Below are positions 2,671 through 64,000 of a DNA stretch of 64,000 nt, piece after piece. Both the position numbers and the translations under genes were made by a program. Every line of letters begins with the position of its first letter. Position 1 is the first letter of the stretch. The DNA comes from a bacterium. Lineage in GTDB: Bacteria > UBA8248 > JACPRG01 > G963555815. Location of the stretch: positions 3,680,001 to 3,744,000 of the forward strand of contig OZ244653.1 in assembly GCA_965218795.1 (NCBI GenBank), read 5' to 3'. Under the pieces are notes generated by a model, which ran no database searches, was not told the DNA's origin, and saw only the letters and a list, made by a program, of their open reading frames with translations.

Positions 2671-3258
2671 ATGAACGATGAAACCGATCCCAGGAGTTCC
2701 AGTGGAGGCAGAGGTGAGTTGATCGCCTATGTTGTGGCGGACTGTAAGGCGAGCGATACGCTGGTCCACGAAGTCGTCGGATATCAGGAGATCATGAAGA
2801 ACGAGGATGAGTATCCGGGACAAAGCGCGGGCCAAACCAAACCCGAGATGATCGGCGCAAACCAGACATTCTACGTCGACGAGCCGCCGATCCTCGGCGG
2901 GGAAGGCAAATATCCCCAGCCGCTCACCTACGTGGCCGGAGGCATCGGTGCCTGACTGCTCACCCAGGTGAAGCGGTTCGCTTCGATGATGAAGATCAAG
3001 CTGAACGCCGCAAGCGTCCGGGTGGAAATGGATTACTTTCGCAGCGGGTCGGTCCTCCGGGGAGACATGACAAGCGGCTGCCGGGAGGTCCGCACGTTTT
3101 TCGAAATTGAATCCGACGCGCCCAAAGATGAGCTACGCCAACTCGTCCGAAACGCCAAAGGCGGATGCTTCGCCGAAAACATGGTCCAGACAGCAGTCTC
3201 GCTCAAAAGCGTCATCACTGTGAACGGAGAAAAACTGGATCCTTCCGAGCTCAAGTGA
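2671..3258 (+). CDS. OsmC/Ohr-like selenoprotein (Sec at UGA 2953-2955)
   Basis: Two ORFs are in frame across a single TGA: DEPPILGGEGKYPQPLTYVAGGIGA-U-LLTQVKR...AKGGCFAE. TGA is at the first OsmC Cys position; RBS GAGGAGG; hairpin downstream. Confidence 0.85.
2970..2984 (+). promoter_or_regulatory. Putative bacterial SECIS element
   Basis: GAAGCG-GTT-CGCTTC stem-loop starting 14 nt after the UGA, with G at the start of the loop. Confidence 0.7.
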
Positions 3259-19138: not shown

Positions 19139-19640
19139 GACGAGCCCTCCTCGTCCGCGGCAGCCTCGAGCGGCCCGCCCGCGGCAAGAAGCCCGAGGCG
19201 AAACGTGATGATCAGGAACTCCAGCGGGATGATGACCTGCGCGGCCCAGGTGGGCACTCCGAGCGCCAGGACCGTCTTCGCCTCTCGTTCCAGCGCGACC
19301 AGCGTCCATCCGGCCCAGGCGAGCGTCCCCGCGACGGCGAGAACCGCGATGGCGGTGATGCGTTCCACCCAGACCTGGCAGCCGGCGGGGATGAGCCGGG
19401 GGACGATGTCGATCCGAATATGACGGGCCCGGCGGGTCGCGAGAGAGGCTCCCACCAGAGCGATCCAGAGGACCCCGTGGCGGAGCAGAACGTCCGTGCC
19501 TTCCACTCCGGCATGAAAGAGGTTGCGGAGAAGGACTTGGAGAAAGGAACCGCCGATCATGACGATCAGCAGGATGACGAGCGCGATTCCCTCCGCCCTC
19601 GCCAGCGACCGCTCAAAGGCCCGGAGGGTCCCGGAAGGGG
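19135..19640 (-). pseudogene. dctQ: TRAP small permease, start region apparently lost
   Basis: QVLLRN...WIALVGASLA..RHIRID motifs; no start codon at the expected position. Confidence 0.7.
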
Positions 19641-29539: not shown

Positions 29540-29639
29540 CGGCGGTTCATCCGGATTCTCCATGAAATCCGACGGAAGAACATTCGGTCATTCCGGTGAA
29601 ACAATGGATTTCGCCGGTTGTCGAACGGGTCCATGGCGG

Positions 29640-30503
29640 CTATCGCAGGCCGGTGATGACAGCGGCTCCCGCAACAACCAGTATCGCCCCCGCGGCCAGC
29701 CGGATCGTCAAGCGTTCGAGCTTGCGGATGGACAGATACGAAATGATAAGGACAAAAAGCGGATACGTGAACAGAAGGGGCGCCAGGACCGAAACCGTTC
29801 CCTTGTTGAGTGCGATGAAATAGAGGTACACGCCGAGAGCCAGGAGCACCCCCGCGGCCGAAAAGAGGGCCAGCTCCTTTTTCCGGGCGATGAAGCGTTC
29901 GCCGGGCGGAAAGAGCCTGGCGGCGGCCGCAAGCGCCGCAACCCCCGCGAGCGAAGAGGCGGCCATCCCGAAGATCGGCGACGGGATATGGTTCATCCCC
30001 GCCTTTCGAAGAACGGGCACCAGCCCGAAAAGAAAGGCGCCGAGGAAGGGATAACCCAGGTCCTTCCGCCGGATGGGACCCGCCGCCCCTTTCTCCAGGC
30101 TGATGATCACCACGCCGCAGACAACGAACAGTGTTCCCGCGGCCACAATCCATCCGGGCCGCTCCCCCAGAAAGAGCATCGAGACGATCAGCGTGAAAAA
30201 GGGGGAGGTGCCCATGAACGCGGCGGTTCTTGCAACGCCGATTCTCCGAAACGCCTGAAAGATGACCACAATCCCGAACGCGGGGTGGACCATCCCCGCC
30301 AGAAAAAACCAGAGCGTCCCGGGGGCGTTGACGGCCGCCGGGGAGGGCAGGAACAGCCAGAGAGCGCCGAACAGGACCAGGGCCACGGCGGACGTGAGGA
30401 CCCCGCCCGTGTAGGCGGACGAGGAGCGAACGGCGACGCGTCCGATGACGTCCCCCGCGGCAATCCCGATGGCCGCCATGACGGCGAAGACTTCAGCGGG
30501 CAA
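29640..30503 (-). CDS. DMT/EamA transporter, paralog 2
   Basis: Same motifs: GVARTAA..GTSP, LFLGE, TYPLF. Confidence 0.88.
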   Translation of the reverse strand: MPAEVFAVMAAIGIAAGDVIGRVAVRSSSAYTGGVLTSAVALVLFGALWLFLPSPAAVNAPGTLWFFLAGMVHPAFGIVVIFQAFRRIGVARTAAFMGTSPFFTLIVSMLFLGERPGWIVAAGTLFVVCGVVIISLEKGAAGPIRRKDLGYPFLGAFLFGLVPVLRKAGMNHIPSPIFGMAASSLAGVAALAAAARLFPPGERFIARKKELALFSAAGVLLALGVYLYFIALNKGTVSVLAPLLFTYPLFVLIISYLSIRKLERLTIRLAAGAILVVAGAAVITGLR

Positions 30504-30549
30504 TTGGAAGTTCTCCCGTTTTTTGGGTTCGATCCGGTCTCTGTCTTGC

Positions 30550-31425
30550 TCACCGGAACCCGGTGATCGCGATCGCTCCCGAGACGATCAACCCGGCCCC
30601 CAGCACGAGCCGCAGGCTGATCCGCTCCAGCGTCCTGAGCACGAAATGGACCATCGGCAGGATAAACAGGGGATAGGTGAACAGGAGCGGGATGACGACG
30701 GAGACCGTTCCGCGTTCCAGCGCGAGAAAGTAGACGAAAACGAATACCGCATGAATGGCGCCGGACGCGGCATACAGCCGTATCCCTCTCTTGTCCTTGG
30801 TGAATCCCCGGCCGGCCGGAAACATCCTGGCGCAGGCGGTCAGGATGATCAACCCCGAAAAAGAGGCCACGGTCATGCCGAATAGGGGCGAAGGAATGTG
30901 ATTCAAACCGGATTTTCTCAGGACCGGGACCAGACCGAACAGCAAAGCCGTGAGGAACGGATAGCCCATGTCCTTCCATCTCACGGCGCCTTTCGTTCCT
31001 TCTTCCAGACTCAGGAGAATCACGCCGAAGACGATGAGGGCCGTTCCCGCGGCGACGCTCAGGCCCGGCCGCTCCCCGAGGAACAGGACGGCAATGGAGA
31101 CCCCGAACAGCGGCGAGGTTCCCATGATGGCGGCTGTTCGGGCGACGCCCACCCGCTCGAAAGCCTTCATCAGCGTGATGAACCCGAAGGCGGGCTGAGC
31201 CAATCCCGCCAACAGAAACCAGCCGATCCCGGTCAGGTTGACCGGCGCCCCCGGCCCCACCGCCCACAAGACGCTCCCGAACAGGAGAAATCCGATGACG
31301 GACGTCATGAAGGCCCCCATGAAGGGGGACGCATGCCGGAGGGCGAGCCGGGCGACCACGTCCCCCGTCGCGAATCCGATGGCCGTTATGACCGCAAGGA
31401 ATTCGGCTATGAAGAAGAAATTCAT
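30550..31425 (-). CDS. DMT/EamA transporter, paralog 3
   Basis: Same motifs; MNFFFIAEF start with GGAGG RBS. Confidence 0.88.
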   Translation of the reverse strand: MNFFFIAEFLAVITAIGFATGDVVARLALRHASPFMGAFMTSVIGFLLFGSVLWAVGPGAPVNLTGIGWFLLAGLAQPAFGFITLMKAFERVGVARTAAIMGTSPLFGVSIAVLFLGERPGLSVAAGTALIVFGVILLSLEEGTKGAVRWKDMGYPFLTALLFGLVPVLRKSGLNHIPSPLFGMTVASFSGLIILTACARMFPAGRGFTKDKRGIRLYAASGAIHAVFVFVYFLALERGTVSVVIPLLFTYPLFILPMVHFVLRTLERISLRLVLGAGLIVSGAIAITGFR

Positions 31426-31630
31426 CCTCCGCTTCCCGGTCCTGCATGACCCCTTCCGGGCTTCACCGTGCTGTATGCGCACCGCGCATCACAGCTCACG
31501 CCACGGCGGGAGCATCATCCAATTTTTTCATGGAAAACGTTGCTCTTTTATGAAGAGGGGGCGCGCGCCCCTTACGGCTCAGCGTCTGCCCCGGCCCGGT
31601 GGGATCCGACTCCCGGAGCGGTTCTCCTTC

Positions 31631-36840: not shown

Positions 36841-37075
36841 CTTGAGCCGGTTGAGGCTGTCAAACGTGATTTTCGGGGTTTATCGTGAGATAGACCATGA
36901 TAATCTAAAAATGACAGCTGCAAAGCGAGAAGAATTTTCTGGGTTTTATGAAGAGATCACTCTTGGCTTGCGTCCTGGTACGAGGTAGGCCGGGCGTCCC
37001 GCCCGGCAGGGGTTCCGGGTCTTGTCGATGACTGCACCCTCGAAATCCGGCTGGATTCAGCCGGCTTGGAAAAGG

Positions 37076-37936
37076 ATGCATAAGATGCCGATCTTTCGGA
37101 GGAAATATTTCGGATTGAGTGGCGGGCCCCGCTGGACGGCGGCGGGGATCCTGCTGACCCTGCTGGCCTTCCCGCCGGGGGTCTGGGCGAGATGCGCGCT
37201 GAACGTCGCCGACGGCTCGGGCGCCGCTCCGGTTCCCATGATCGTGAGGGTGTCCGGTGATGGTCTTCCGGCTGTGCCGGCGGGTCACCTGCGGGTGACC
37301 TTCCTCGGGCATTCGAGTTTTCTCGTGACGACCCCGGGCGGGGCCTCCATTGTCACCGATTACAATGATCGATTCCTTCCGGCCAGGCCGCCGCACGCGG
37401 CGACGATGAGCAACTCCCACCACCTGCACAGCTCGGAAACCATTGAGCCGGCGTTGACCCGGCCTCTGCGCGGATGGGACCCCGAAGGCGGAATTGCAAG
37501 AGTCGAAATCATGATCAAGGACGCCAAGGTCTTCAATGTCCCGACGAACTTCAGCGGGGCCGGAGGCATCCGGATCAACGGGAATTCCATTTTCATCGTG
37601 GAAGCGGCGGGCCTTTGCGTTGCTCACCTCGGCAACTTGCGGCACCTCCTCGACAAGAAGGGCTTGCGGGATCTGGGGCGGATTGACGTCCTCTTTATCT
37701 CCGCCGACGGCTCATGGACGCTCAGCCATCCGGACGCGATCCAGCTGATCCGCCAGATCAGCCCGTCTATCGTCATTCCCATGCAATATGGATTCATGGG
37801 TCCGCACCCGTTTGCGGTCGCTGCGATGCGGTACTTTCCGGTGAAAGAGTTGAACCGAAGCTCGTTTTTGATCAGCCGGAAGACGTTGCCCCGTCGCACG
37901 GAAGTGTTTTTTGTCCGGCCCCTTCAGGAAGGATAG
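37076..37936 (+). CDS. Secreted MBL-fold hydrolase, paralog 1
   Basis: GHSSF..TPGG..TDY, MSNSHHLH, NSIF..GLCVAHLG, IPM. Confidence 0.85.
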   Translation: MHKMPIFRRKYFGLSGGPRWTAAGILLTLLAFPPGVWARCALNVADGSGAAPVPMIVRVSGDGLPAVPAGHLRVTFLGHSSFLVTTPGGASIVTDYNDRFLPARPPHAATMSNSHHLHSSETIEPALTRPLRGWDPEGGIARVEIMIKDAKVFNVPTNFSGAGGIRINGNSIFIVEAAGLCVAHLGNLRHLLDKKGLRDLGRIDVLFISADGSWTLSHPDAIQLIRQISPSIVIPMQYGFMGPHPFAVAAMRYFPVKELNRSSFLISRKTLPRRTEVFFVRPLQEG

Positions 37937-37938
37937 GC

Positions 37939-38841
37939 GTGAGCGTGTTCCATCAACCGTCTTTTCGATTGAAGGAATGGATGGAGCGGCGATTCGGGCC
38001 GATGGGGTGGCTCGGCTGTGTGGCGGTATGGCTGCTGCTGTCCTCCGGCATTGCGTGGGGCGCTTGCTCCCTGAACATGGTGAACGAAGACACGCCATCG
38101 GGTGGGCCGGGCGTCCCGCCCGATGGCGTTCAGGGGATCCGGCTTGTTGCATCGACCGGTCCGGATGCTGTCCCCGCCGGGCATCTGAGGATTTATTTTT
38201 CCGGACACTCAAGCTTTTACCTGGAGACGCCCGAGGGCGCGCGGATCTTCACCGATTACAATGCCCGGGATCTTCCTCCCGTGATTCCCGAGATCATCAC
38301 CATGAGCAACCCGCATCCGACGCACAGCGTGCAGGTGATCGATCCCGGCCCGGCGAAGATTCTTCGAGGCTGGAACCCGAAAGGGGGCAGTGCGAAGGTT
38401 GACCTGAAGCATAAGGACGCCCGAATCTTCAACCTCCCGACAAATCGGACGGAGATCAACGGGAAGAGCTATTTTTTGAACTCCATCTTTATCGTTGAGG
38501 CCTCAAGACTATGCGTGGCTCACCTGGGAAACCTGAATCACCTTCTTGCTCCCGAAGACGTGGGAAAACTGGGCCGTGTGGACTTGCTCTTCGTGCCGAT
38601 TGGAACCATCGGCGCGCTCAGCCCGGCGGATGCGGTGGCGGTGATCCGGCAGATCCGGGCTCCCCTCGTGATCCCGATGCACTTCGACACGACCAACCCC
38701 AATGTGTTCGTGGCGCTGGCCCGGGAGTCATTCCCGGTTAAAGTTCTGAACGGGAATCATATGTTGGTCAGCCGTGAATCCTTGCCGAAGACCACGGAGA
38801 TCGTGTTCATGCTGGTCGAGCCCGTCCCGGAAGAGAAATGA
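37939..38841 (+). CDS. Secreted MBL-fold hydrolase, paralog 2
   Basis: GHSSF, MSNPHPTH, AHLGNLNH, IPMHF. Confidence 0.85.
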   Translation: MSVFHQPSFRLKEWMERRFGPMGWLGCVAVWLLLSSGIAWGACSLNMVNEDTPSGGPGVPPDGVQGIRLVASTGPDAVPAGHLRIYFSGHSSFYLETPEGARIFTDYNARDLPPVIPEIITMSNPHPTHSVQVIDPGPAKILRGWNPKGGSAKVDLKHKDARIFNLPTNRTEINGKSYFLNSIFIVEASRLCVAHLGNLNHLLAPEDVGKLGRVDLLFVPIGTIGALSPADAVAVIRQIRAPLVIPMHFDTTNPNVFVALARESFPVKVLNGNHMLVSRESLPKTTEIVFMLVEPVPEEK

Positions 38842-38848
38842 GCCGCCT

Positions 38849-39733
38849 TTGAGCTTCCATCCTTGGATTTCTGCCGCAGGAAGGAAAAGTCTGTTGTCTA
38901 CAAGGATTTTTGGACCGATTGGAAGCTGGATTGCAGGGCTGATCGGCATTGGATGGGTCGGTTTCACAGGGGTGGCCTGGGGGGCATGCGTTCTCGACGT
39001 TGCGCGCAACGACCCGGCGGTCCCGGGCCCTTGGATTCGCCGGGTCTCGACCGGAGCGCCTTCCGTTCCCCCGGGGCATCTGCGGATCACCTTCAGCGGC
39101 CATTCGAGCTTCTTGATCGAGACCCCGGGCGGGGCCTCCGTCATCACCGATTACAATGCGCGAAACCTTCCCTCCGTGAGGCCGGACGTCGTCACGATGA
39201 GCAATCCTCATGACACCCACAGCAGCGATGTGGTGGACCCCGCCATCCCGATGGTCCTGAGGGGATGGAACCCTGTCCGCGGCGTCGCCCGCCATGATGT
39301 CAGGATGAAGGACGCGCGAATCTTCAGCATCCCGACGAATTTCATCGAGGCCGGGGGTATCCACACCAACGTCAATTCCATTTTCGTGGTAGAGTCGGCG
39401 GGACTCTGCGCCGCGCATCTGGGCAATCTCAATCACGTCCTCGAGACTGAAACCCTGAAGAAGCTGGGACGCATCGACGTTCTGTTCGTCCCCATCGATT
39501 CGAGATGGACGCTGAACCACGCGACCGCCATTCAGGTGATTCGGCAGGTCGGTCCCGGTTTGGTGATTCCGATGCATTATGATTTTATGTTTCCGGAGGA
39601 ATTTGCGAGCCTTGCGAGGAAGTCGTTCCGGGTCAAGGTGCTGGATCGGGGGGTCCTGCTTGTCAGCCGCAAAACCCTCCCGCGCGCAACGGAGATTCTG
39701 TTCATGCGGGACGTCCGACTGGGCGGGCCGTGA
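38849..39733 (+). CDS. Secreted MBL-fold hydrolase, paralog 3
   Basis: GHSSF, MSNPHDTH, AHLGNLNH, IPMHY; start uncertain. Confidence 0.85.
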   Translation: MSFHPWISAAGRKSLLSTRIFGPIGSWIAGLIGIGWVGFTGVAWGACVLDVARNDPAVPGPWIRRVSTGAPSVPPGHLRITFSGHSSFLIETPGGASVITDYNARNLPSVRPDVVTMSNPHDTHSSDVVDPAIPMVLRGWNPVRGVARHDVRMKDARIFSIPTNFIEAGGIHTNVNSIFVVESAGLCAAHLGNLNHVLETETLKKLGRIDVLFVPIDSRWTLNHATAIQVIRQVGPGLVIPMHYDFMFPEEFASLARKSFRVKVLDRGVLLVSRKTLPRATEILFMRDVRLGGP

Positions 39734-39790: not shown

Positions 39791-40531
39791 ATGGCCGTCA
39801 ATGCCCGGAACATCGAAATCAGCGTCAATGGCAATCAGGTGCCCGCCTACCTCGTTCTCCCGGAAGGTCCGGGGCCCCATCCCGGCCTTTTGATCATCGA
39901 GGAGATTTTCGGCGTCAACGATCACATCCGGGACATCTGCCGACGCTACGCAGGATACGGGTACGCCACCCTGTCCGTCGAGCTGTTCCATCGCGAAGCC
40001 GAACCCCAAACGCCGTATACCGAGTTCGAGACGGCCCGGGACAAGAGAACCCGACTCAAGGATTCCGAGGTCGCCGCGGAGATGCGCGCCGGCGTGGCTC
40101 ACCTGCGGGGACTGGACGAAGTCAACGCGGACAAGGTCGGGATTCTGGGCTACTGCATGGGCGGGCGGATGTCTTACTTTGCCGCGACCCAGATACCGGA
40201 CCTGGCCGCGTGCGTCGTTTATTACGGCGGGGGCATCGTCACCGACGCTCTGAATGAGAACACCCCTGCGGCCCCGGTCTCGCTGACGGGGGACATCCAA
40301 TGTCCCGTCATGTGCCACTTTGGTGAGACCGATCACGCGATCCCGTTGGACCAGGTGGACCAGATCCGGAAGGCCCTCGCGGATGCCGGGAAGACCCACG
40401 ACGTTTTCGTCTATGATGGCGCGGGCCACGGCTTTTTCTGCGACCAGCGGGAAGGTCATTTCCATGAGGAGGCGGCGAAGCTCTCACTGGAGCGGACGTT
40501 GGCCTTTCTGGGGAAACAAATGAAGAACTAG
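39791..40531 (+). CDS. Dienelactone hydrolase family protein
   Basis: EIFGVN, GYCMGG, FGETD, AGHGF. Confidence 0.92.
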   Translation: MAVNARNIEISVNGNQVPAYLVLPEGPGPHPGLLIIEEIFGVNDHIRDICRRYAGYGYATLSVELFHREAEPQTPYTEFETARDKRTRLKDSEVAAEMRAGVAHLRGLDEVNADKVGILGYCMGGRMSYFAATQIPDLAACVVYYGGGIVTDALNENTPAAPVSLTGDIQCPVMCHFGETDHAIPLDQVDQIRKALADAGKTHDVFVYDGAGHGFFCDQREGHFHEEAAKLSLERTLAFLGKQMKN

Positions 40532-40611
40532 ATGTTCAAGCGGATTCCACTCGTAAGGACGTTTCGGGGAAACCGATCGGAAAATCGCCGGTGGATGAAG
40601 GAGGCAGACTG

Positions 40612-42975
40612 ATGAGCGGTGTCGCTGCCGAGAAAGAATTGAAGTGGGTCGGCAAGAATCTGGACCGCGAGGATGGGGCTGACAAGGCGACGGGCATGGG
40701 CGTTTTCGTGACGGACATGCAAATGCCCAACATGCTGACGGCCAAGTTTCACCGCAGCAAGCTGGCCCACGCCCGGATTCGAAACGTGGACGTTTCCAAG
40801 GCCCTGAAGGTTCCGGGCGTGAAGGCGGTCCTCACGTCGGAGGATTGCCCCAAGGATGAGAACGGAAACCTCTACGGATTCGGGGCCTACATGTTCGATT
40901 ATACCATCCTGGCCCACAAGAAGGTCCGGTTCGTATCAGAGCCCATTGCGGTGGTCGCGGCGACCCACGAGGACGCGGCCGAGGAAGGGGTGGACCTCAT
41001 CGAGGTCGAATACGAGGAGATGCCGCCTGTCTTCGACCCCCTGGAGGCCATGGAAGACGGCGCCCCCATCATCCATGAGAACCTCGAACAGTACCCGGTC
41101 GTCCCCGGCTTCACGCCGGTGCGGTTCGGAAACGTGGCGTGCCAGCTCCGGTTCGCCATGGGGGATGTGGAGAAGGGTCTGAAGGAAGCCGACCTCGTCT
41201 TCGAGGACGAATACAGCACCGTGACCAACCACCAGTCCTACATGGAGCCCCATGCCGCCATCGCGCAGGTAGACGCCAAAGGGAGGGTGACGGTCTGGAC
41301 GAGTACGCAAACGGTGGCCGAGGTGCGCCGCGAATTGGGGGACACCCTGAAAATTCCCGCCAGCCAGATCCGAGTCGTTGCGCCGTACATCGGCGGAGGG
41401 TTCGGGGGGAAGCTCGACATCCGCGTCGAGCCCCACGCCATTCTGCTCGCGCAGATGACCCGGCGGCCGGTCAAGATTGTTCTGAGCCGCGAGGAGGAGA
41501 TGAACTCCGGCCACCCGCGCCATCCCTTCATCCTGAAGTACCGGACCGGGATGATGAAGGACGGGCGGATCCATGCCCGGGACATCAAGGTCATCGCCGA
41601 CTCCGGGGCCTATTGCCACCAGGGGATGGGCGTGATGGCCGCATCCAGTATTCACGCGCGGGGTCCTTACAAGGTCCCCCACGTCGTCGTGGACGGAAGT
41701 CTCGTCTATACGAACAAGCTGCCCTTCGGCGGTTACCGCGGCTACGGGACCCCGCAGGTGACCTTCGCGGGCGAGTCCCAGTTGGAGGACATCGCCAGGG
41801 AGTTGGGGATCGACCCGGTCGAGATCCGCATCAAGAACGCCATCGCGGCGGGCGATCGGTATGTGACCGGCCAGCCGGTTACGCATACGGCGATTGAAGA
41901 GACCCTGAAGCGCGCGGCGGAGAGCGCCGGCTGGGACTTGAAAGAAGGGAAGCGGCCCCGGCGCGAGCCGGCCGACCCGAAGAAGAGGTATGGAATCGGG
42001 ATGGGGTGCATGCAGCACGTCGGCGCGGTGTTCGCCTCGAGCGCGCTCATTAAAATGGAAGAGGACGGGGGCATCACCGTGATGGCGGGGGGCACGGAAA
42101 TCGGGGCGGGGCAACGCACGGTCCTGTCCCAGATCGCCGCCGAGGGCCTCAGCATCCCCTATGAGAAGGTGTCCATCGTCCTCTCCGATACGCTCGTCAC
42201 GCCCTACGATTGGTCGACCGACGCCAGCCGAACGACCTACAACACCGGGAACGCCATCCTGCGGGCCTGCAAAGAAGTGAAAGACAGGCTTCTCGAAATC
42301 GGGGGCATGATGCTGGAGGCGGACCCCAAGGACCTCGACGTGGATACCGGGGAGATCTATGTCAAGAGCGCGCCGGACCGACGGGCCTCCTATCACGACG
42401 TCGTCATGTTCGGCCTCTACGTGGACGGGGGCGTGGTTCTGGGCAAAGGCTCCCACTTCGACCCGCCAAAGTTCGATCCGCCGAAGGACGTCAAGCTCGA
42501 GGGAGTCAGTTTTCCTCCCTTCCCGGCCTATATTTTCGGTACGCAGGTCGCCGAGGTCGAAGTCGATACGGAGACGGGGCGCGTGGAGATCATCGCCCTC
42601 CATTCAGCCCATGACGTGGGGAAGGCCATCAGCCCCGCCGGGTGTGAGGGGCAGATCGAGGGCGCGGCGTCCATCGGCCTCGGCTGGCTCCTGTCTGAGG
42701 AAATCGCATTCGAGAACGGCGTTGTGACCAACCCCACGTGGCTCGATTACAAGCTGCCCACAACCCTCGACATGCCGCCGGTTTATCCTCTTCTGGTCGA
42801 GGAGCCGGATGAGACGGGTCCGTTCGGCGCCAAGGGAATCGGCGAGCCGGCGCTGGTTCCCACGCCCGCTGCCGTGGCCAATGCGATTTGCGACGCCATC
42901 GGCGTGCGGATGACGGACATGCCTTTCACGCCCGACCGTGTCCTGGCCGCCATGCGGGAAAGCGGGGCTGATTGA
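40612..42975 (+). CDS. Xanthine dehydrogenase-family molybdopterin-binding subunit
   Basis: YMEPH, GGGFGGK, YRGYGTPQ, GQIEG, GAKGIGEP. Confidence 0.93.
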   Translation: MSGVAAEKELKWVGKNLDREDGADKATGMGVFVTDMQMPNMLTAKFHRSKLAHARIRNVDVSKALKVPGVKAVLTSEDCPKDENGNLYGFGAYMFDYTILAHKKVRFVSEPIAVVAATHEDAAEEGVDLIEVEYEEMPPVFDPLEAMEDGAPIIHENLEQYPVVPGFTPVRFGNVACQLRFAMGDVEKGLKEADLVFEDEYSTVTNHQSYMEPHAAIAQVDAKGRVTVWTSTQTVAEVRRELGDTLKIPASQIRVVAPYIGGGFGGKLDIRVEPHAILLAQMTRRPVKIVLSREEEMNSGHPRHPFILKYRTGMMKDGRIHARDIKVIADSGAYCHQGMGVMAASSIHARGPYKVPHVVVDGSLVYTNKLPFGGYRGYGTPQVTFAGESQLEDIARELGIDPVEIRIKNAIAAGDRYVTGQPVTHTAIEETLKRAAESAGWDLKEGKRPRREPADPKKRYGIGMGCMQHVGAVFASSALIKMEEDGGITVMAGGTEIGAGQRTVLSQIAAEGLSIPYEKVSIVLSDTLVTPYDWSTDASRTTYNTGNAILRACKEVKDRLLEIGGMMLEADPKDLDVDTGEIYVKSAPDRRASYHDVVMFGLYVDGGVVLGKGSHFDPPKFDPPKDVKLEGVSFPPFPAYIFGTQVAEVEVDTETGRVEIIALHSAHDVGKAISPAGCEGQIEGAASIGLGWLLSEEIAFENGVVTNPTWLDYKLPTTLDMPPVYPLLVEEPDETGPFGAKGIGEPALVPTPAAVANAICDAIGVRMTDMPFTPDRVLAAMRESGAD

Positions 42976-44852: not shown

Positions 44853-45320
44853 TCAGGAGTTCTTCTCCGCGGCGGAGCGGATGGCCTTCAGGATTTCGGG
44901 ATGGGCCCCGCAGCGGCAATAGTTTCCGAGAAGGTATTCCCGAACCTCTTCGTCGGAGGGGTTCGGCATCTCCGAAAGCATCGCCTTCACGGCCAGCATC
45001 ATCCCCGGGGTGCAGAAGGCGCATTGAAACGCCGCGTTCTCGAGAAAGGCTTCCTGGACCGGATCCAGCCGATCCCCTTGAGATAGCCCCTCGACGGTCG
45101 TGACCTCCTGGTCGGAGCGAAGCCGGGCGGCGAGCGTCAGGCAGGAGCTGACGGGCTTGCCGTCAATCAGGACCGTGCACGTTCCGCACGCGCCGACCGA
45201 GCACCCTTCCTTCGTCCCGGTCAGGTGGAGTTTTTCCCGGAGGACGTCCAGGAGCAGGGCCTGATCGTTGATCTCGAGGGTTTCCCGCTCGCCGTTGATG
45301 GTCAGATCGACGGTCCTCAT
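44853..45320 (-). CDS. Mo-hydroxylase small (2x 2Fe-2S) subunit, CoxS-like
   Basis: GTKEGCSVGACGTC, FQCAFCTPG, NYCRC. Confidence 0.93.
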   Translation of the reverse strand: MRTVDLTINGERETLEINDQALLLDVLREKLHLTGTKEGCSVGACGTCTVLIDGKPVSSCLTLAARLRSDQEVTTVEGLSQGDRLDPVQEAFLENAAFQCAFCTPGMMLAVKAMLSEMPNPSDEEVREYLLGNYCRCGAHPEILKAIRSAAEKNS

Positions 45321-47665
45321 GGCGTCCCGCCGTTTCCGTTTTCACCGCGCAGCGCCCGCAGAACGCTCTCCGGCGTGATGGGGATCTCGTGAATCCAAAT
45401 GCCGACGGCGTCGAAGACCGCGGCCGTAATGGCCGGGATCGTCGCCATCGTGCCCGTTTCGCCCACCCCCTTCGCGCCGTAGGGTCCGTCCCGGTGCGGC
45501 GTCTCGAGGACGTGGGAGGTCAACGTCCGGGGCACGTCTCCGAACGCGGGGAGGATGTAGTCCAGGAAGGACTGGTTCGTGATCTGCCCTTCCTCGAACC
45601 GCATGGTTTCGAAGAGCGTCAGCCCGAGGGTCGTAATCGCCGCGCCGAGGATCTGCTGGTCGCAATGGGCGGGGTGGATGGCCTTGCCCACGTCGGCGCC
45701 GCCGGCGAAGTTCAACACCTTCACGGTCCCGGTTTCGCAGTCCACCTCCACTTCGGCGGCCGAGGCGCCCCCGAACCAGTAGGCCGTCATATTCTCCGAC
45801 TGCCCCGTTTCCTTGTCCGTCGGGGCGACGGATGTCTGAAAGACTCCTTGGCCGACCAGCGTGGTTCCTTTCGCGCCCTTGAACTTGTGGGCGAAGACCT
45901 CCTCCTGGGTCATGCGCCGGTCCGGCATGCCCGTCACCCGAACCCCCTCCTCGTGATACTCGATCTGATCTTCACTCACCTCCATGGCGTCCGAGGCGAT
46001 CTCGATGAATTGCCGCTTGAGATCGTCGGCGGCGAGCTGGACGGCGCGTCCCATATGGAAGGTCGAGCGGCTCCCGGCCGTCAGCGTGTCATACGGCGTC
46101 ACATCGGTATCCGGCCGCACGACGCTCACCTTTTCGAAGGGGACGCCCATCTCCTCCGCCGCGATCTGGCACAGGATGGTGTCGGAGCCCTGTCCCATCT
46201 CGACCGTCGAGGTCAGGACGTTGACGCTGCCGTCGCTGCCCATCTCCACAATCGATCCGGAGGTGGAAGGCGTCAGGACCGCCTTGAGAGCGAGGGCGCA
46301 TCCCTTGCCGCGGCGTTTGCCTCTTGCGGGCGGCGGCGAGGGCGGCTTCCGCGGACCCGGCTCCCAGCCGATGGCCTCGGCGCACTTCTCCAGCGACTCC
46401 TTGTGACCCAGGCTGTGAAGCCTGGTTCCCGAGGCGAAGAAATCGCCCTCGTCGTAGGCGTATTCCAGGCGGAGTTCCACCGGGTCCCGCCCGAGATGGT
46501 GGGCCGCCTTGTCCATGTGGGATTCATAAGCGAAGGCCACCTGAGGCACGCCGAACCCGCGAAACGGCCCGGCGGGCGTCTTGTGGGTATAGACGCAGTA
46601 GGAATCGATCCATACGTTGTCGATCTTGTAAGGGCCGGCGCCCGTGAATCCGGTCTTGTAGGCGATGCGGGGGCCGATCTCCGCAAAAGCGCCCGTGTCG
46701 TAGTAGACGGCGACTTTCCGTGAGCTGATCTTCCCGTCCTTGGAAACGCCCGTCTGCATTCGACAGACCGCGCCGTGCTTGGAGGACGTGACGAAAACCT
46801 CCTCGCGGTTCAGGATCCACCGCACCGGCTTTCTCGTCACCCTGGCCAGCAGGGTCGTGATGGGCTCGAGCTTGTCGTAGAGCTTGGCGCCGTAGGCCCC
46901 GCCGAGGTAGGGCACGATCACGCGAACCCGGTTCAAGGGGACGTTGTAGATGTTGGACAGATCATTCCGCACCAGCGAGGGGCTCTGCGTAGAGGTCCAC
47001 ACGGTCACCTTGCCGTTGGCGTCCCAGTTGGCCATGACCCCGTGGGGCTCCAGATGGGCGTGAGAGGCGGGGGGCGAAACATAGTCATCCGAGAACACCA
47101 CAGCGGCTTCCGCCAGCGCCTTTTCCGCGTCTCCCCTGCGCAGCTTGAAATGGTAATTGATGTTCGAGTTTCCGCCTTCCAGATGGGCCAGGTCGGCGAA
47201 GGTCTTGGCCGACTCCAGTGTCTCGTGGACGAGCGGGGCTTCGGGCCGGATGGCGTCGAGCACGTTGTGAACGGCGGGCTGGGGCTCGTATTCGACCTCG
47301 ACGAGGGAGAGCGCCTTGTCCGCCGCTTCACGGGTGTCGGCGGCAACGGCGGCCACGCACTCGCCCACGTGGCGGACCCGCTCGACGGCCAGGATGGGCT
47401 GATCGCGGAAGGCCGGCCCGTAGAAGGGCGAGATTCCCTCCATCTCGAGAATGTCCGGGCCCGTCAGGACGGCTTTGACCCCGGGCGTCTTTCGCGCTTC
47501 CGTTGCGTCGACCCTGGTCAGAAGGGCGTGGGGGTGCGGGCTCCGAAGGACCGCCGTATGCAGCATGCCGGGGAGAGAGAGGTCCGCGACGTACTGGGCG
47601 TTTCCGGTGATCTTGGGAAGTCCGTCGATGCGGGGAATGGATTCTCCGATGATGGATGTGGTCAT
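45317..47665 (-). CDS. Xanthine dehydrogenase-family molybdopterin-binding subunit
   Basis: HLEPH, GGAYGAK, PFRGFGVPQ, EMGQG, GAKGVGET. Confidence 0.93.
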   Translation of the reverse strand: MTTSIIGESIPRIDGLPKITGNAQYVADLSLPGMLHTAVLRSPHPHALLTRVDATEARKTPGVKAVLTGPDILEMEGISPFYGPAFRDQPILAVERVRHVGECVAAVAADTREAADKALSLVEVEYEPQPAVHNVLDAIRPEAPLVHETLESAKTFADLAHLEGGNSNINYHFKLRRGDAEKALAEAAVVFSDDYVSPPASHAHLEPHGVMANWDANGKVTVWTSTQSPSLVRNDLSNIYNVPLNRVRVIVPYLGGAYGAKLYDKLEPITTLLARVTRKPVRWILNREEVFVTSSKHGAVCRMQTGVSKDGKISSRKVAVYYDTGAFAEIGPRIAYKTGFTGAGPYKIDNVWIDSYCVYTHKTPAGPFRGFGVPQVAFAYESHMDKAAHHLGRDPVELRLEYAYDEGDFFASGTRLHSLGHKESLEKCAEAIGWEPGPRKPPSPPPARGKRRGKGCALALKAVLTPSTSGSIVEMGSDGSVNVLTSTVEMGQGSDTILCQIAAEEMGVPFEKVSVVRPDTDVTPYDTLTAGSRSTFHMGRAVQLAADDLKRQFIEIASDAMEVSEDQIEYHEEGVRVTGMPDRRMTQEEVFAHKFKGAKGTTLVGQGVFQTSVAPTDKETGQSENMTAYWFGGASAAEVEVDCETGTVKVLNFAGGADVGKAIHPAHCDQQILGAAITTLGLTLFETMRFEEGQITNQSFLDYILPAFGDVPRTLTSHVLETPHRDGPYGAKGVGETGTMATIPAITAAVFDAVGIWIHEIPITPESVLRALRGENGNGGTP

Positions 47666-47849
47666 GGGCGTCAAAAATCCTTGTTCCGTGGGGGCCTTTT
47701 CGAAAGCCGGCCCCAACCCTCCGAAAAAGTTTTCATTCACGGCGGCGGGCTTCGCGCGCCATCGCGAAAACGGACGGGAACTGCGTTCCGCGCGGTCCGA
47801 TCGACGCTTCCCGGATTCCCCCGGACGAAAAAACTCCCTGCCGCTCGTT

Positions 47850-48716
47850 TCAGGCCGGCTCCAGCAGGGCCTCGATGCCCCGCCTCACGTGGACCTTCAC
47901 CATCTCCCGCTTGTACCAGCCGGAGCCTCTGTGGTCTTCGATGGGCCGGGTCTGGGCGGCGGCCGCATCCGCGACGGCCTCGATCCGCTCCTCGCTCAGT
48001 TCCTGTCCCACGGCCAGATCCTCCAGCCCCGAGACCTTCACCGGCGTCTCGGCGACCGACGTCAGGACGACGCGGAGATCCCCGCAGGTCCCGTTGTCCA
48101 TGCGCAGCATGACCGCCGTTCCGAGCGTCGGCCAGTCGGCCGCGGCGTTTCCCACGTACTTGAGGTAGATCCCCTTCAGGCCGTCCGTCGGGGGAGGCAG
48201 CGTCACGGCGGTGACGATCTCTCCCTCCTCTTTGGCGGTCGCATAAAAACCGGTGAAGAATTCTTCCAGCGGCAGATCGCGCTCCCCGCCGGCGCCGTGC
48301 AGGCGGATCCGGGCGTCCAGGGCGATCAGCGGAGCGGGCGGGTCGATTCGGAAATCGCCGTGGGCCAGGTTGCCCCCGACCGTGGCGCTGTTGCGCACGC
48401 GGACGTTCGCCACGCGGGCGTACGTGCTCGAGAGAACGGGATAGTGTCCGGTGACGGCCGGGTGAAGCTCCACCTCCCGGTGGGTCGCCAGGGCCCCCAG
48501 ACGCAGCCCCTCCTTCGGGTCGAACCGGATCTCGGACAGCTCGCGCAGGGCCTTCAGGTTGATCAGGTGATTCGGTGCGTACAAGCCGTTCTTCATCAGG
48601 ATGAGAACGGCGGTTCCGCCCGCGATGGGGGCGGCCTCGTCCCCGAAATCGGAGAGCATCCTGCAGGCTTCATCCGGCGTGGCTGGATCGTGAAGGGTGA
48701 AGGGGGGGAGAGCCAT
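47850..48716 (-). CDS. Mo-hydroxylase FAD-binding subunit, CoxM-like
   Basis: IAGGT, VRNSATVGGN, D.RGS..YK. Confidence 0.92.
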   Translation of the reverse strand: MALPPFTLHDPATPDEACRMLSDFGDEAAPIAGGTAVLILMKNGLYAPNHLINLKALRELSEIRFDPKEGLRLGALATHREVELHPAVTGHYPVLSSTYARVANVRVRNSATVGGNLAHGDFRIDPPAPLIALDARIRLHGAGGERDLPLEEFFTGFYATAKEEGEIVTAVTLPPPTDGLKGIYLKYVGNAAADWPTLGTAVMLRMDNGTCGDLRVVLTSVAETPVKVSGLEDLAVGQELSEERIEAVADAAAAQTRPIEDHRGSGWYKREMVKVHVRRGIEALLEPA

Positions 48717-51906: not shown

Positions 51907-52269
51907 CGAGAGTCTGCTCCGCGGGAATGACAAGCTGAGTCCCCCGCCCGTCATTCCTGCGTGCTTCAGGCGGGAGTCCAGGGAAAACGCCAAGGGTGCA
52001 GGAGGCATTGTTGGGCCCCCACTCAGGCCACTCCCCCCCTTGAGGGGGAGTCGGCAAGACTAAGGACGGAGTCCGCAGGCGCGCCGGTGGGGGGGACGGT
52101 CGAAGATACGCGGCCAAGGCCCCCCCAACCCTCTCCCTCCAGGGAAGAGGGAGAGGATCCCGGAACCGTCGCGCCATGCTCGCCGGTCCCTGTGCACCCA
52201 CCGACCAGTCACCCGCGAGAGTTTCTGTCGGGGGTCCACTTCCTGGATTCCCGTCTGCGCGGGAATGAC
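51907..52269. repeat. Composite repeat region: GTCATTCC REPs around a ~140-bp element also found at 60927 and 62990
   Basis: cactccccccttgagggggagtcggcaagac...ctccctccaggg..gagggagaggatcccggaa. Confidence 0.8.
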
Positions 52270-52330
52270 AGGCCGGCGCGGTCACCCCCGGCCCTGGTTT
52301 CGAGGTTTCTCAAGGCGGACGGTTGCCGCG

Positions 52331-53185: not shown

Positions 53186-53409
53186 CGGTCGATGCGGGAA
53201 TGACGAAATAGGACACGCATACCTCCCAGCCCGTCATTCCCGCGTAAGCGGGAATCCAGCTTGACCGGCTCATGCGGGTTCGGTCTCAACGCATAATCGG
53301 GCAGGAATCCATATGGCAGGGTGGGAGGGGTGCAGGAATGACAAACGAGGCCCGCGCACAATAGCCTGTCATTCCCGTCCTCGACTGTCTGGGATCGGAA
53401 ATAATTGTA
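53186..53409. repeat. REP cluster plus an orphan inverted-repeat end (ggatcggaaataattgta)
   Basis: Several gtcattccc/gggaatgac units; 53392-53409 matches 42979. Confidence 0.7.
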
Positions 53410-54950: not shown

Positions 54951-55098
54951 GAAGTGGATACCCGCTTTATGCGATAATTTGAAGGCAAAGTGGTCACCGA
55001 AGGCGGGAAGGCTCAAGGGGATTCGTGTTGATTGGGGCGCCTGAGAAAATAGACGCTCCAAGAAGTCCATATGGGTCAGGGCTCGCATCCCCCAATCC

Positions 55099-55321
55099 GT
55101 CATTCCCGCGCAAGCGGGAATCCACCGGGGAATCCCGGTCTCCAATTTCCTGGATTCCTGCGTGCGCGGGAATGACGGACAAAAAGAACGGCTCCAGGAT
55201 GTGTCTGGCAGGCGCAGGAATGGCGGACAGAAGGACCCGCTCCTGCATGTATCAGACAGGGGCAGGAACGACAAGGGTCACCCCGGTTATCAGCCTGTCA
55301 TCCCCGCGAATACGGGAATCC
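55099..55321. repeat. REP cluster
   Basis: gtcattcccgcgcaagcgggaatcc, its inverse at 55152, degenerate copies to 55321. Confidence 0.8.
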
Positions 55322-60089: not shown

Positions 60090-60110
60090 ACTTGTTTCGA
60101 GGAACCGGCG

Positions 60111-60344
60111 ATGCCCGTGGTGAACGTCCACGAAGCGAAAACCCATTTGTCGCGTCTGCTCGCGCAGGTCGAGGACGGCGAGGAGGTCGTGATTGCCCGC
60201 AACGGCAATCCCGTCGCCCGGCTCGTGCGTGTCCAGGAGCGGGGCAATCGGCAATTCGGCTCCATGAAGGGCCGGATAAAACTCGACGAGGGCTTCTTCG
60301 ACCCGCTGCCGGAAGAGGAGTTGGCTGCCTGGGAGGGTCGTTGA
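60111..60344 (+). CDS. Phd/YefM family antitoxin
   Basis: VNVHEAKTHLSRLL..V..GEEV.IAR.G.PVARL. Confidence 0.93.
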   Translation: MPVVNVHEAKTHLSRLLAQVEDGEEVVIARNGNPVARLVRVQERGNRQFGSMKGRIKLDEGFFDPLPEEELAAWEGR

Positions 60345-60347
60345 GCG

Positions 60348-60734
60348 TTGCGTCTCCTGCTCGACACCCACGCGTTCTTTTGGTGGTTTTCCGGGAGCAG
60401 CCGCCTGTCGCTACCCGCGCGGCAGGCGATTGCGGATGACGGCAACGACGTCATGGTCAGCGCGGCGTCGGCGTGGGAGATCGCGACGAAACATCGGATC
60501 GGCAAGCTCCCGGACGCGGATGCGCTGGCCCTTGACATGACCGGGGCAATCGCCGGACAGGACTTCGAGGAACTGCCCATCACCGTAGAGGACGCCGCGC
60601 GGGCCGGATCGTTGCCGGGTTCCCTTCGCGATCCGTTCGATAGAATGCTCATCGCGCAGGCGCTCGCCCACGATCTCGTTCTCATCACGATGGAGACGCT
60701 CTTCGACCGCTACGGCGTTCGCCGTCTCTGGTGA
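60348..60734 (+). CDS. vapC: VapC PIN-domain toxin
   Basis: LLLDTH, SAASAWE, DPFDRMLIAQA; final conserved Asp reads TME. Confidence 0.92.
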   Translation: MRLLLDTHAFFWWFSGSSRLSLPARQAIADDGNDVMVSAASAWEIATKHRIGKLPDADALALDMTGAIAGQDFEELPITVEDAARAGSLPGSLRDPFDRMLIAQALAHDLVLITMETLFDRYGVRRLW

Positions 60735-61646: not shown

Positions 61647-62450
61647 TCAACGCTGCCAGCGGAACCGGTACATGATCGCCAGGCGCACGACGCCAAGCCT
61701 GGTTTCAATGTCGTAGGGGCAAGGCCTTCGAGGGTTTCCCGGCCCGCAAGAGTTGTTGCCGGAGCGGTTCACATGATAGGTGCTCGACCCGAAATCCAGG
61801 TACGAGCCGTCGAGCCGCAGGAACCAGGCATCGGACAGCGGAACCTCGACCCCGGCCCCGATCACCCAGCCGATGTCCGTTGACGTGTCGCGGAAGGAAT
61901 CGTCGGGGTCCACCCGCGTCGGGTCGGAATCGATGTCGATGACCGAACGGGCGACCCGGGCGACCGCCAACCCGCCGCCGGCGAATACGGTCGCGCCCCC
62001 CACGGCGTGTTCGACGCCGGCGCGCGTCGTGACAATCCATCGAAACTCCGATTCCGCCGTCTCGTCCAGACCTTCGGGATCGAGCTGGTTCGTTTTCGCC
62101 GACATGTCGCCGAACGTGGCATCGATCTCGATCCGGAACGGCACGCCGCCCATCTCGAACCTCTTCCCCGCCAGTACGCCGCCGGCGAACCCGGCATCGT
62201 CGTAACTGACACCCGAACCGGGATGACCCCAGTTCGCAAAGCCGTCCACGTCGACGATCCGGTTGCTCATTCGACCGAAGCCGGCGAAGACACCGGCGTA
62301 CGTCCCCGCCCGGATGGAATCGAGAGCGGCATCGCCGCTTCCCGCGCTCGCGGGACCGCCGTTCGCGAGCATGAGAAGGGCCGTCAGCGCAAGAAGCGCC
62401 GAGCGCCATGCGGAGCCATGCCTGGCGCCAAGCCCGGATTTTTCTTTCAT
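61647..62450 (-). CDS. Outer membrane beta-barrel protein (Omp25/RopB-like)
   Basis: Signal peptide, GTYAG.F.G, GWVIGAGVE, YLDFG, terminal MYRF. Confidence 0.8.
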   Translation of the reverse strand: MKEKSGLGARHGSAWRSALLALTALLMLANGGPASAGSGDAALDSIRAGTYAGVFAGFGRMSNRIVDVDGFANWGHPGSGVSYDDAGFAGGVLAGKRFEMGGVPFRIEIDATFGDMSAKTNQLDPEGLDETAESEFRWIVTTRAGVEHAVGGATVFAGGGLAVARVARSVIDIDSDPTRVDPDDSFRDTSTDIGWVIGAGVEVPLSDAWFLRLDGSYLDFGSSTYHVNRSGNNSCGPGNPRRPCPYDIETRLGVVRLAIMYRFRWQR

Positions 62451-62989
62451 GGTCGTCTTATCGCCTCACTGGTATAGGGTTGAATAGATTCAAGAGCTTG
62501 TGATTCAGCCGGTTTGCAGCAACTGGAAGATCACATGGCCTGAACGGAAATCACTTGCCCGGAATATGAATGCAAAATGGCTCGGGCCGCTTATCACTTG
62601 GTTCCGGTTGTCTCGAGATGTTGCAGGTGACGGATTTTGCGCGGACGGCAATGTCGAACAAGGTTGGCCTGGATGGCATTCGGGCAGGCTGTGTTCTCAT
62701 CGGTTTCCATCCGCCAGATTCATCCCCGGCAGCTCCCGCGGCGCATCATCATCGGCGATGTCGGAGGTCCCCGGCCCGTGGTGGCCCTGCGCGTCACGGC
62801 GACGCCCGAGATAGTGAGCCATGTTGAGTATATAGAGATCTTCCTTAATCTGTAACCGCGTAAGATGAAGCCCGCACATTGAATCTTGTCCATATGGACT
62901 TGTGACATATGGAAATGCAGATGACAATTCATCCCCTTTTCATCGCCCTTTCAGGTCCATTATAAGATCCATTGAACCCCCCCACCGCC

Positions 62990-63132
62990 TCACTCCCCCC
63001 TTGAGGGGGAGTCGGCAAGACAAGGACGAAGTCCGCAGCCGAGCCGGTGGGGGGCGGTCGAAGATGCACGGCCAATGCCCCCCTCATCCCAACCTTCTCC
63101 CTCCAGGGGAGAGGGAGAGGATCCCGGAAACG
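62990..63132. repeat. ~140-bp dispersed element (direct copy of 52028-52168)
   Basis: cactccccccttgagggggagtcggcaagac...gagggagaggatcccggaa. Confidence 0.8.
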
Positions 63133-63345
63133 TTGATGCACCGCCAATGCACCACCCGTGCACGCGCCTTGCCGTTCGACGGGATGACGGAGCGCAGTTC
63201 TGGAAGCAGGCGCAACGGTTGATGCGGATAAAGAACCTCTTTCCGCCACCCGGGGCGGTCAGAAGATAGTTCGACGCTCATCGCAACAGGATGTTTCCCG
63301 CCTCGAACACTCGGGGGTAGGCTTCAGGCGGGGGTCCACATTGCC

Positions 63346-63486
63346 AGTCACCCCGGCAAGTTTCAGGCCGGGGTCTACTCCTCTGGATTCCCGCTTCCGC
63401 AGGAATGACGGGATTCAGCTCTCCGTTGAGATTTTGAACCAGTCAGTCACACCGGCAGGCCCCGGGCTCAAGCGCTCGGGAATGAC
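63346..63486. repeat. REP cluster
   Basis: ggattcccgcttccgcaggaatgac and degenerate neighbours. Confidence 0.65.
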
Positions 63487-63537
63487 GGGGCGCGGCCGGC
63501 GACCCGGCGTCATCGTCTCACCTTAGTTATGGAAGGC

Positions 63538-64000
63538 TCAGTGGTCCGGGTCCACGCCCAATGCGTTGGCCCTCCGGTTGGTGTAATTGAAGTAGCCGAC
63601 GATCTGGACCACGTCGTAGATGTCTTCATCCGTCAGCCCTTCCGCCCGGAGCGGCGCCAGGTCGTCCTCGGACATCTCCCGGGGATGGAGGGTCAGCTTC
63701 TCCGCGTACTCCAGGATGCGCAGGGTCCTGGCGTCGAGTTCCGCCTTGCGGTAATCCACGATGATCTGCCGTGCCAGGGCCTCGTCCCCGGTCGCTTCAC
63801 GGAGAGACTCTCCGTGATGCTGCACTCAGTACACGCATCCGTTGATGGCGGAGACCACGATGGCGATCATCTCTCTCTGCGCCTGGCTCAGGCCCGAATC
63901 GCCGAACATGACGGCCCCGTAGAGCGTGCTGAGGCCGATCATGACCGGCGGCCGCAGGCTCATGAGCTTGAAGATCCCCCGGACCCGCCCGTCCCGCTCG
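63538..64000 (-). CDS. AhpD/CMD-like peroxidase selenoprotein (CxxU), 5' end outside the window
   Basis: Open frame ...GDSGLSQAQREMIAIVVSAINGCVY-TGA-VQHHG...YAEKLT..P...LR..GLTDEDI..GYFNYTNR; TGA at 63826-63828. Confidence 0.9.
63798..63816 (-). promoter_or_regulatory. Putative bacterial SECIS element
   Basis: CACGGAGA-GTC-TCTCCGTG perfect stem 9 nt after the UGA; loop starts with GU. Confidence 0.75.

Follow-up and report, generated by a model that had tools for sequence, protein, structure and literature searches.

AhpD-like and OsmC-like selenoproteins have both been in the literature since 2005. The Sargasso Sea study of that year reported them as new selenoprotein families, the AhpD-like proteins (COG2128; 27 sequences) with a CxxU motif and the OsmC-like proteins with a UxxT motif, where U is selenocysteine (Sec) (PMC1088965). 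In the survey of the Global Ocean Sampling (GOS) data, "AhpD-like 1" accounts for 299 selenoprotein sequences and stands fourth among the families that head the survey's table (PMC2398784), and the lists in a 2026 review include "AhpD-like protein, TIGR01926, CxxU" and "OsmC-like protein, PF02566, UxxT" (PMC13188914). Here we describe an AhpD-like gene at the end of a 64,000-nucleotide stretch of DNA from an uncultured bacterium (contig OZ244653.1, positions 3,680,001 to 3,744,000). We call this whole stretch the window, and our coordinates count from its first base. An earlier note, made from the bare sequence, had proposed that the gene encodes a selenoprotein, and we agree: the gene very probably encodes an AhpD-like thiol/selenol oxidoreductase (TIGR01926) of about 177-180 residues, in which Sec is the second residue of the CxxC motif. 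Because AhpD-like CxxU proteins are already in the published lists, the gene is a member of a known family and is of an already-known kind.

An AhpD-like gene with an in-frame UGA

On the minus strand, a reading frame is open from position 63999 to a TGA stop codon and contains a single internal TGA (Table 1). The context of the internal TGA in this frame is REMIAIVVSAINGCVY-TGA-VQHHGESLRE (...SAINGCVY-TGA-VQHHGE...). The G+C content at third codon positions of this frame is high on both sides of the internal TGA, at 0.95 upstream and 0.85 downstream. When lengths are counted from the first start codon in frame, full-length orthologues have 176-189 residues; they share a conserved N-terminus (MAYxRQIE), which implies that the copy in the window lacks about 24 codons at its 5' end.

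If the internal TGA is read through, the visible part of the protein has 153 residues and belongs to TIGR01926 ("peroxidase-related enzyme"), with a score of 155.6 bits against a cut-off of 81.8. This match covers residues 6-152 (profile positions 29-176 of 178) and so spans the TGA, which is at residue 58. The Pfam domain CMD (PF02627) also spans the TGA (residues 17-72; 57 bits against a cut-off of 23; E = 1.9e-15), and the AhpD domain model TIGR00778 (ahpD_dom) gives 50.5 bits against a cut-off of 27.8. The protein is not a member of the canonical AhpD family, TIGR00777 (28.5 bits; cut-off 191.95). It also lies outside two other models, NF041238 (AhpD_rel_CFYUT; 48.9 bits) and NF053654 (YciW-related; 29.1 bits), because these scores are far below the respective cut-offs of 175 and 310. 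Among proteins of known structure, those described as "peroxidase-related/AhpD" (6k40, 2pfx, 3c1l, 2oyo, and 2prr) match at E values from 1.3e-36 to 7e-27, and in the best of these alignments the CVYC of 6k40_A is opposite the C-V-Y-U of the window protein.

The active site points to the same family. In Mycobacterium tuberculosis AhpD, the proton relay is formed by Glu118, Cys130, Cys133, and His137, according to a published account, which also describes gamma-carboxymuconolactone decarboxylase as having neither the CxxC motif nor the AhpD relay residues (PMC3141380). The spacing of Glu43, Cys55, Sec58, and His62 in the window protein is identical to that of the four relay residues of AhpD. 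We assign the protein to the AhpD-like branch and not to the decarboxylase branch because it has the CxxU motif along with the glutamate and the histidine. The alignment of homologues contains the motif E.IA..VS..N.CxxC..HH that the earlier note had given for this family, and His62 is nearly invariant among the aligned homologues. The note's proposal that the UGA takes the place of the second cysteine (Cys) is thus borne out by the family match, by the published family, by a hairpin that is conserved and covaries in the Sec forms only, and by the pairing of Cys and UGA codons among relatives that we now describe.

A word-indexed protein search yielded 25 homologues. Just 11 of these cover the motif, and all 11 have CxxC (34-56% identical to the window protein). 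Another 12 are gene calls of 95-100 residues that are 62-97% identical and begin directly after the Sec column, and the other two are C-terminal pieces that begin 10-12 residues past that column. The short calls arise because gene callers stop at UGA. Standard gene callers cut the AhpD-like gene in this way, and its redox center is thereby lost from the annotations.

A scan of GTDB representative genomes found 80 related loci, the best of them 75% identical and none from the window's own genome. The codon that is homologous to the internal TGA is TGC or TGT in 65 of the loci and TGA in the other 15 (L001-L007, L019, L040, L044, L045, L050, L073, L077, and L079), so that, with the window, there are 16 Sec genes to compare. 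The UGA is placed exactly at the second Cys of E-x11-C-x-x-[C/U]-x3-H; the earlier note had suggested a test of Cys/TGA pairing against homologs. On a maximum-likelihood tree of the 81 proteins, seven changes between Sec and Cys are needed, five of which are forced by well-supported branches. Therefore, the Sec/Cys state has switched repeatedly. The family itself is large: an exhaustive profile-free search found 4186 cluster representatives at E <= 1e-3.

Purifying selection acts on the gene both before and after the UGA: in orthologue pairs, the ratio of nonsynonymous to synonymous substitution rates (dN/dS) is less than 1 for either part (for instance, 0.35 and 0.16 for the window copy and L001). 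This bears on the possibility that the gene is a dead pseudogene, in which a TGC or TGT codon for Cys has mutated to TGA, or that the Cys codon was misread as TGA in sequencing or assembly. TGA is indeed one base change away from TGC or TGT, and no Sec machinery was seen in the window. Against this, the same TGA is found at the same codon in 15 of the 80 loci, which are from other assemblies; the 12 short gene calls are from independent assemblies as well, and one of them is 97% identical; the frame is intact and has dN/dS < 1 downstream of the TGA; and the hairpin discussed below is kept with compensatory changes. The idea of a dead or misread gene is already largely refuted, and we consider it most improbable.

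A different explanation is that there are two short genes, with an N-terminal piece that stops at the TGA and a C-terminal piece of 95 residues for which translation restarts right behind it. In the window the TGA is indeed followed by GTG, and the 12 database gene calls do begin exactly there. Yet only 7 of the 16 Sec genes have a canonical start (ATG, GTG, or TTG) directly 3' of the TGA, while the others have GTC, ATT, ATA, ACG, ACC, or CTG. Furthermore, a split would cut the CxxC center and the single domain that is spanned by the Pfam and TIGR01926 matches, and the relatives with Cys are single genes of 176-197 residues. A pair of short genes is thus scarcely credible.

Three related metagenome-assembled genomes (MAGs) each have two AhpD-like paralogues (L001/L005, L002/L004, and L003/L007), with TGA at the Sec site in both. 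Of these duplicates, L001-L003 are the type with which the window copy clusters.

The hairpin downstream of the UGA

In bacterial Sec decoding, SelB carrying Sec-tRNA(Sec) binds a hairpin, and the ribosome inserts Sec instead of terminating. Such a hairpin, or Sec insertion sequence (SECIS), was part of the earlier note's proposal, and the stem it had described is present. Nine nucleotides 3' of the internal TGA is the sequence CACGGAGA-GTC-TCTCCGTG. RNA folding adds a U-A pair, which extends the stem to 9 bp, and then two more pairs (G-C/C-G) past an A/A mismatch. The core stem of 9 bp (63797-63817) has a folding energy of -12.9 kcal/mol, and its apical loop, GUC (63806-63808), is 17 nt past the UGA. 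The 27-nt hairpin, listed in Table 1, has a folding energy of -15.6 kcal/mol (z = -5.17), and none of 200 shuffled sequences was equally stable; in a context of 66 nt, the z score is -2.74 and 2 of 200 shuffles were equally stable. The hairpin lies within codons for His-His-Gly-Glu-Ser-Leu-Arg-Glu.

As summarized in the 2026 review, a bacterial SECIS has a loop of 3-9 nt, a stem of 4-16 bp, and a G in the first two bases of the loop; it is 16-37 nt from the UGA, and its minimum free energy is at most -7.5 kcal/mol (PMC13188914). The hairpin in the window passes all four of the published constraints.

We then asked how the hairpin is distributed among relatives. Because raw folding energy gave no separation between Sec and Cys genes, we adopted position-specific pair counts, with six core pairs at fixed positions (from 14-30 to 19-25, in nucleotides after the U of the UGA). 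Ten of the 16 Sec genes are able to form the full set of six pairs, while five pairs are possible in 5 genes and four in the remaining one (L040). Among the 65 Cys genes, none can form six pairs and just one can form five. As the glycine codon of the stem, GGA is used by 15 of the 16 Sec genes, as compared to 2 of 35 glycine codons at that site in Cys genes. The relatives with UGA all have a hairpin at the same codons, with L040 being marginal.

The pairing is also supported by covariation. When the 16 Sec sequences are aligned, 74.5% of the cells pair, as compared to 67.1% in shuffled alignments (none of 500 was as high), and slid registers of the hairpin are all worse. Seven of the 11 pairs have changes on both sides. 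In particular, the closing pair covaries (C-G in 4 sequences, G-U in 4, A-U in 3, and G-C in 1). A matched comparison is provided by two genes that both encode the peptide TQLHGGFLR at this site: the folding energy is -10.6 kcal/mol (z = -2.61) for L050, a Sec gene, and -7.2 kcal/mol (z = -0.34) for L047, a Cys gene. Thus, the SECIS-like hairpin is conserved and covarying in the Sec forms only. It is written in the codons of the active-site helix, His-Gly(GGA)-x-x-Leu-Arg, and it has been held through at least five switches between Sec and Cys. The comparison of Sec and Cys forms across 81 genes is a clean example of an RNA signal that constrains synonymous codons in an active-site helix.

The same data speak to whether the UGA might be read through as Cys or Trp by a near-cognate tRNA, or under a variant genetic code. 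The conserved downstream frame demands read-through of some kind, and it is this frame that we observe, not Sec itself. Two observations contradict a variant code: the AhpD-like gene is itself stopped by a TGA, near the end of most homologues, and relatives without UGA always have Cys at the aligned position. TGA is also the stop codon of the OsmC-like gene and of a Phd antitoxin gene in the window. The window is 61% G+C; known reassignments of TGA occur in low-G+C lineages. A hairpin that follows the bacterial SECIS rules is kept only beside the UGA. Decoding as anything other than Sec is therefore very unlikely, and we return to Sec as the reading that we favor.

The loop of the hairpin is not peculiar to this genome. 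The earlier note had suggested that a triloop starting with GU, 17-20 nt after the UGA, amounted to a genome-specific SECIS model that could be used to find new selenoprotein families. The triloop is GTC in 8 of the 16 Sec genes, GTT in 4, GGT in 2, and GGC in 1, and L040 has CGG there. The G[U/G]N triloop, 17 nt past the UGA, is found in MAGs labelled Chloroflexota, Nitrospirota, Rokuibacteriota, Deferrimicrobiota, Bacillota, and Nitrospinota, and in three unclassified MAGs. The notion of a genome-specific model is thus not supported, since other phyla share this loop and the general model of the bacterial SECIS accommodates it. A crude scan of the window with the rule derived from this notion, for a TGA followed, after 16-21 nt, by a stem of at least 6 bp with a GT-starting triloop, gave 4 matches, as compared to 1.8 +/- 1.5 in random sequence. 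Of these 4, two have no open frame, and the only matches in open frames are those in the two supported genes.

We also built a covariance model of the AhpD-like SECIS. It recovers its 16 training sequences and then gives weak matches to Cys homologues, at the corresponding position. It found no OsmC site, nothing else in the 1.3 Mb searched, and nothing else in the window, so it is specific to the family. With Rfam, the whole window had no match at the gathering score, and the matches within 63500-64000 were at chance level (E = 1.4-9).

Several observations weigh against our reading of the gene as a selenoprotein gene. First come some of the hairpin statistics. In the 42 nt past the codon, the mean raw folding energy is -12.7 kcal/mol for Sec genes and -10.9 kcal/mol for Cys genes (p = 0.18, Mann-Whitney test), and some alphaproteobacterial Cys genes, such as L031 (-21.9 kcal/mol), have a strong hairpin of their own after the codon. 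The hairpin of L040, a Sec gene, is at chance level (-7.0 kcal/mol; z = -0.63). Across five phylogenetically independent contrasts between Sec and Cys, the hairpin accompanies Sec in 4-5 and in none is the direction reversed, for p = 0.0625; a sign test cannot reach 0.05 because there are only five such contrasts. The matches of the covariance model to the Sec genes arise by construction. Second comes the genomic setting. The start of the gene falls beyond the edge of the window; the window contains no selA, selB, selD, or tRNA-Sec within its 64 kb; and we found no conserved partner near the orthologues, except for a divergent gene with a metallo-beta-lactamase fold in L001-L003. Finally, we know of no experimental demonstration of Sec insertion or of activity in the AhpD-like family.

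The following mechanism is modelled on bacterial Sec decoding and, for the chemistry, on homology with M. tuberculosis AhpD and PA0269. SelB with Sec-tRNA(Sec) would bind the hairpin 17 nt past the UGA, with G-U at the start of the apical loop, and the ribosome would insert Sec at the internal UGA rather than terminating. The second TGA, which has no such hairpin, would terminate translation. In the protein, the selenolate would be activated by a relay of Glu43, His62, and water, and might attack an oxidised substrate, which could be a peroxide or an oxidised partner of the peroxiredoxin type. Cys55 would resolve the intermediate to give a selenenylsulfide, and this would presumably then be reduced by a cellular reductant.

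Some Cys genes have features of their own at this site. The alphaproteobacterial Cys forms L031, L022, and L033 have a strong hairpin, GGCGCAUGG...CCGUGCGCC (down to -21.9 kcal/mol), within the 45 nt just past the Cys codon. In the Rokubacteria/Methylomirabilota clade, the Cys genes L047, L048, and L051 score 18-21.6 bits on the SECIS covariance model at the homologous site (around 10160-10204 of these loci). These may be fossils of a SECIS after a recent replacement of Sec by Cys.

A second selenoprotein gene and the host

The earlier note had also claimed another selenoprotein in the same 64 kb, and the gene at 2671-3258 on the plus strand fits this claim. Its product scores 144.5 bits against the model NF041052 (OsmC_like_Se), with a cut-off of 95. 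The Pfam OsmC match (E = 6.4e-14) spans the TGA, and in the solved OsmC-like proteins 2opl_A and 3cje_A a conserved Cys stands opposite the U. Its U-L-L-T fits the published UxxT motif. The hairpin that follows, GAAGCG-GUU-CGCUUC (2970-2984), has its loop 20 nt past the UGA; it is weak (-7.3 kcal/mol) and has a competing fold.

We also screened the window for in-frame TGAs between coding-like flanks, which gave 90 candidates. Exactly two of these have their TGA inside a single Pfam domain, namely the AhpD-like and OsmC-like genes. Other screened TGAs with Pfam matches were rejected because the TGA is outside of the match; most of these are neighboring genes that share a frame. One arrangement of this kind is at 60090-60734 on the plus strand, where a Phd/YefM antitoxin and a PIN-domain (VapC-type) toxin are in the same frame, with an ordinary stop codon, TGA, between them at 60342-60344.

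Correct annotation adds two selenoproteins, one AhpD-like and one OsmC-like, to 64 kb of an uncultured bacterium. Does this make the organism rich in selenoproteins, as the earlier note had suggested? As a back-of-the-envelope Poisson estimate, which assumes a 4-Mb genome and a randomly chosen window, the chance of two selenoprotein genes in 64 kb is about 0.003 if the genome has 5 such genes and about 0.19 if it has 50. For a genome that encodes only a few selenoproteins, two such genes in 64 kb would thus be improbable. The squalene-hopene cyclase in the window is 72-74% identical to proteins from "Nitrospinota bacterium". In the ranking reported for BSepDB, three MAGs with Nitrospinota or Nitrospinae in their names (UBA8248 in GTDB) are among the ten richest selenoproteomes (PMC13326102). 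It is conceivable, as a tentative placement, that the window comes from an uncultured Nitrospinota-labelled lineage with an unusually large selenoproteome. On the whole, richness in selenoproteins is plausible for the organism; in the window, exactly 2 of the 90 candidates are supported. Two selenoproteins in 64 kb are a hint, not proof, of heavy investment in selenium-based peroxide and redox defence. As for the decoding machinery, there are no tRNA genes of any kind in the window, and no tRNA-Sec was found in the flanks of the 15 Sec loci.

Surroundings of the gene and comparison with known systems

Table 1. Features of the AhpD-like gene, the OsmC-like gene, and the dispersed repeat, in window coordinates
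Feature	Position	Strand	Evidence or remark
AhpD-like selenoprotein coding sequence, partial	63538..64000	minus	Matches to TIGR01926, Pfam CMD, and PDB 6k40_A
In-frame UGA read as Sec (U58 of the partial translation)	63826..63828	minus	Second position of CxxU
TGC codon, first Cys (C55)	63835..63837	minus	First position of CxxU
GAG codon, Glu43	63871..63873	minus	12 residues ahead of the first Cys; AhpD proton-relay Glu
CAC codon, His62	63814..63816	minus	4 residues past Sec; proton-relay His; within the 5' arm of the hairpin
SECIS-like hairpin inside the coding sequence	63794..63820	minus	Folding, Sec-versus-Cys pairing, covariation
True stop codon (TGA) of the AhpD-like gene	63538..63540	minus	Most homologues end within a few residues
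OsmC-related (seleno)protein gene	2671..3258	plus	In-frame UGA at 2953-2955; motif U-L-L-T
Palindromic repeat copy	52262-52300	minus	
Palindromic repeat copy	53230-53265	plus	
Palindromic repeat copy	55096-55130	plus	
Palindromic repeat copy	55169-55205	minus	
Palindromic repeat copy	63375-63412	minus	
Degenerate repeat copy	51947		
Degenerate repeat copy	63479		

There is no synteny between the window and the related loci. A peroxiredoxin gene was not found among the 34 of 59 neighboring open reading frames (ORFs) that were scanned near six orthologous loci. Downstream of the AhpD-like gene is a region of about 1.1 kb (62465-63537) without any ORF that has a Pfam hit, followed by an outer-membrane beta-barrel gene (61647-62450).

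The region at 62465-63537 holds copies of a palindromic repeat along with a 14-nt inverted repeat (62978-62991 and 63041-63054). The palindromic repeat, CCGTCATTCCCGCG-N4-5-GCGGGAATCCAG, is intergenic and dispersed (Table 1), and one copy is about 100 nt downstream of the stop codon of the AhpD-like gene. Its 11-base core occurs 10 times in the window with at most one mismatch, as compared to 3.07 expected occurrences, and none of 100 shuffled sequences reached 10. It looks like a repetitive extragenic palindromic (REP)-type element.

Elsewhere in the window, the DctM gene of a tripartite ATP-independent periplasmic (TRAP) transporter (18008-19309, minus strand) is seemingly frameshifted. Two stretches of its long ORF match the DctM profile (the best at 237-411), and profile positions 117-190 are encoded in another frame (18568-19011). 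Either the gene is a pseudogene or the assembly is in error here. At 23828-24454 on the plus strand there is part of a GatB/GatE catalytic domain (Pfam GatB_N, profile positions 38-150 of 277; E = 4.4e-15), isolated and without the rest of the gene, and it overlaps an opposite-strand ORF that has no Pfam hit. The window also contains three tandem genes for EamA-family transporters (28661-31485, minus strand), two paralogous Lactamase_B_3 genes (36989-37933 and 38750-39730), and two molybdopterin subunits of the xanthine-dehydrogenase type (40468-42972 and 45317-47881).

The finding of an AhpD-like selenoprotein raises no new question for the field. The nearest known system is the AhpD-like selenoprotein family itself (TIGR01926/COG2128), with which the window gene shares the same model, a CxxU motif with Sec in the second position, a downstream SECIS hairpin, and widespread Cys homologues. 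We see no substantive difference, except that the window copy is at most 75% identical to genes from GTDB representative genomes and is cut by the edge of the window. The proteins of known structure (6k40, 2pfx, 3c1l, 2oyo, and 2prr) are similar over their full length; all of them carry Cys where the window protein has Sec. The NF041238 and NF053654 models have the AhpD core and the idea of CxxU in common with the window gene, which is far under their cut-offs. The hairpin is within the limits of the general bacterial SECIS model (the bSECISearch consensus), in a minimal triloop form that has no match in Rfam. Lastly, M. tuberculosis AhpD (TIGR00777), an adaptor reductase of the AhpC/AhpD system with weak peroxidase activity, shares the two-helix core and the relay Glu-x11-Cys-x-x-Cys-x3-His; in contrast to it, the window protein has Sec in place of Cys133 and Tyr57 in place of His132, with the Tyr as in PA0269.

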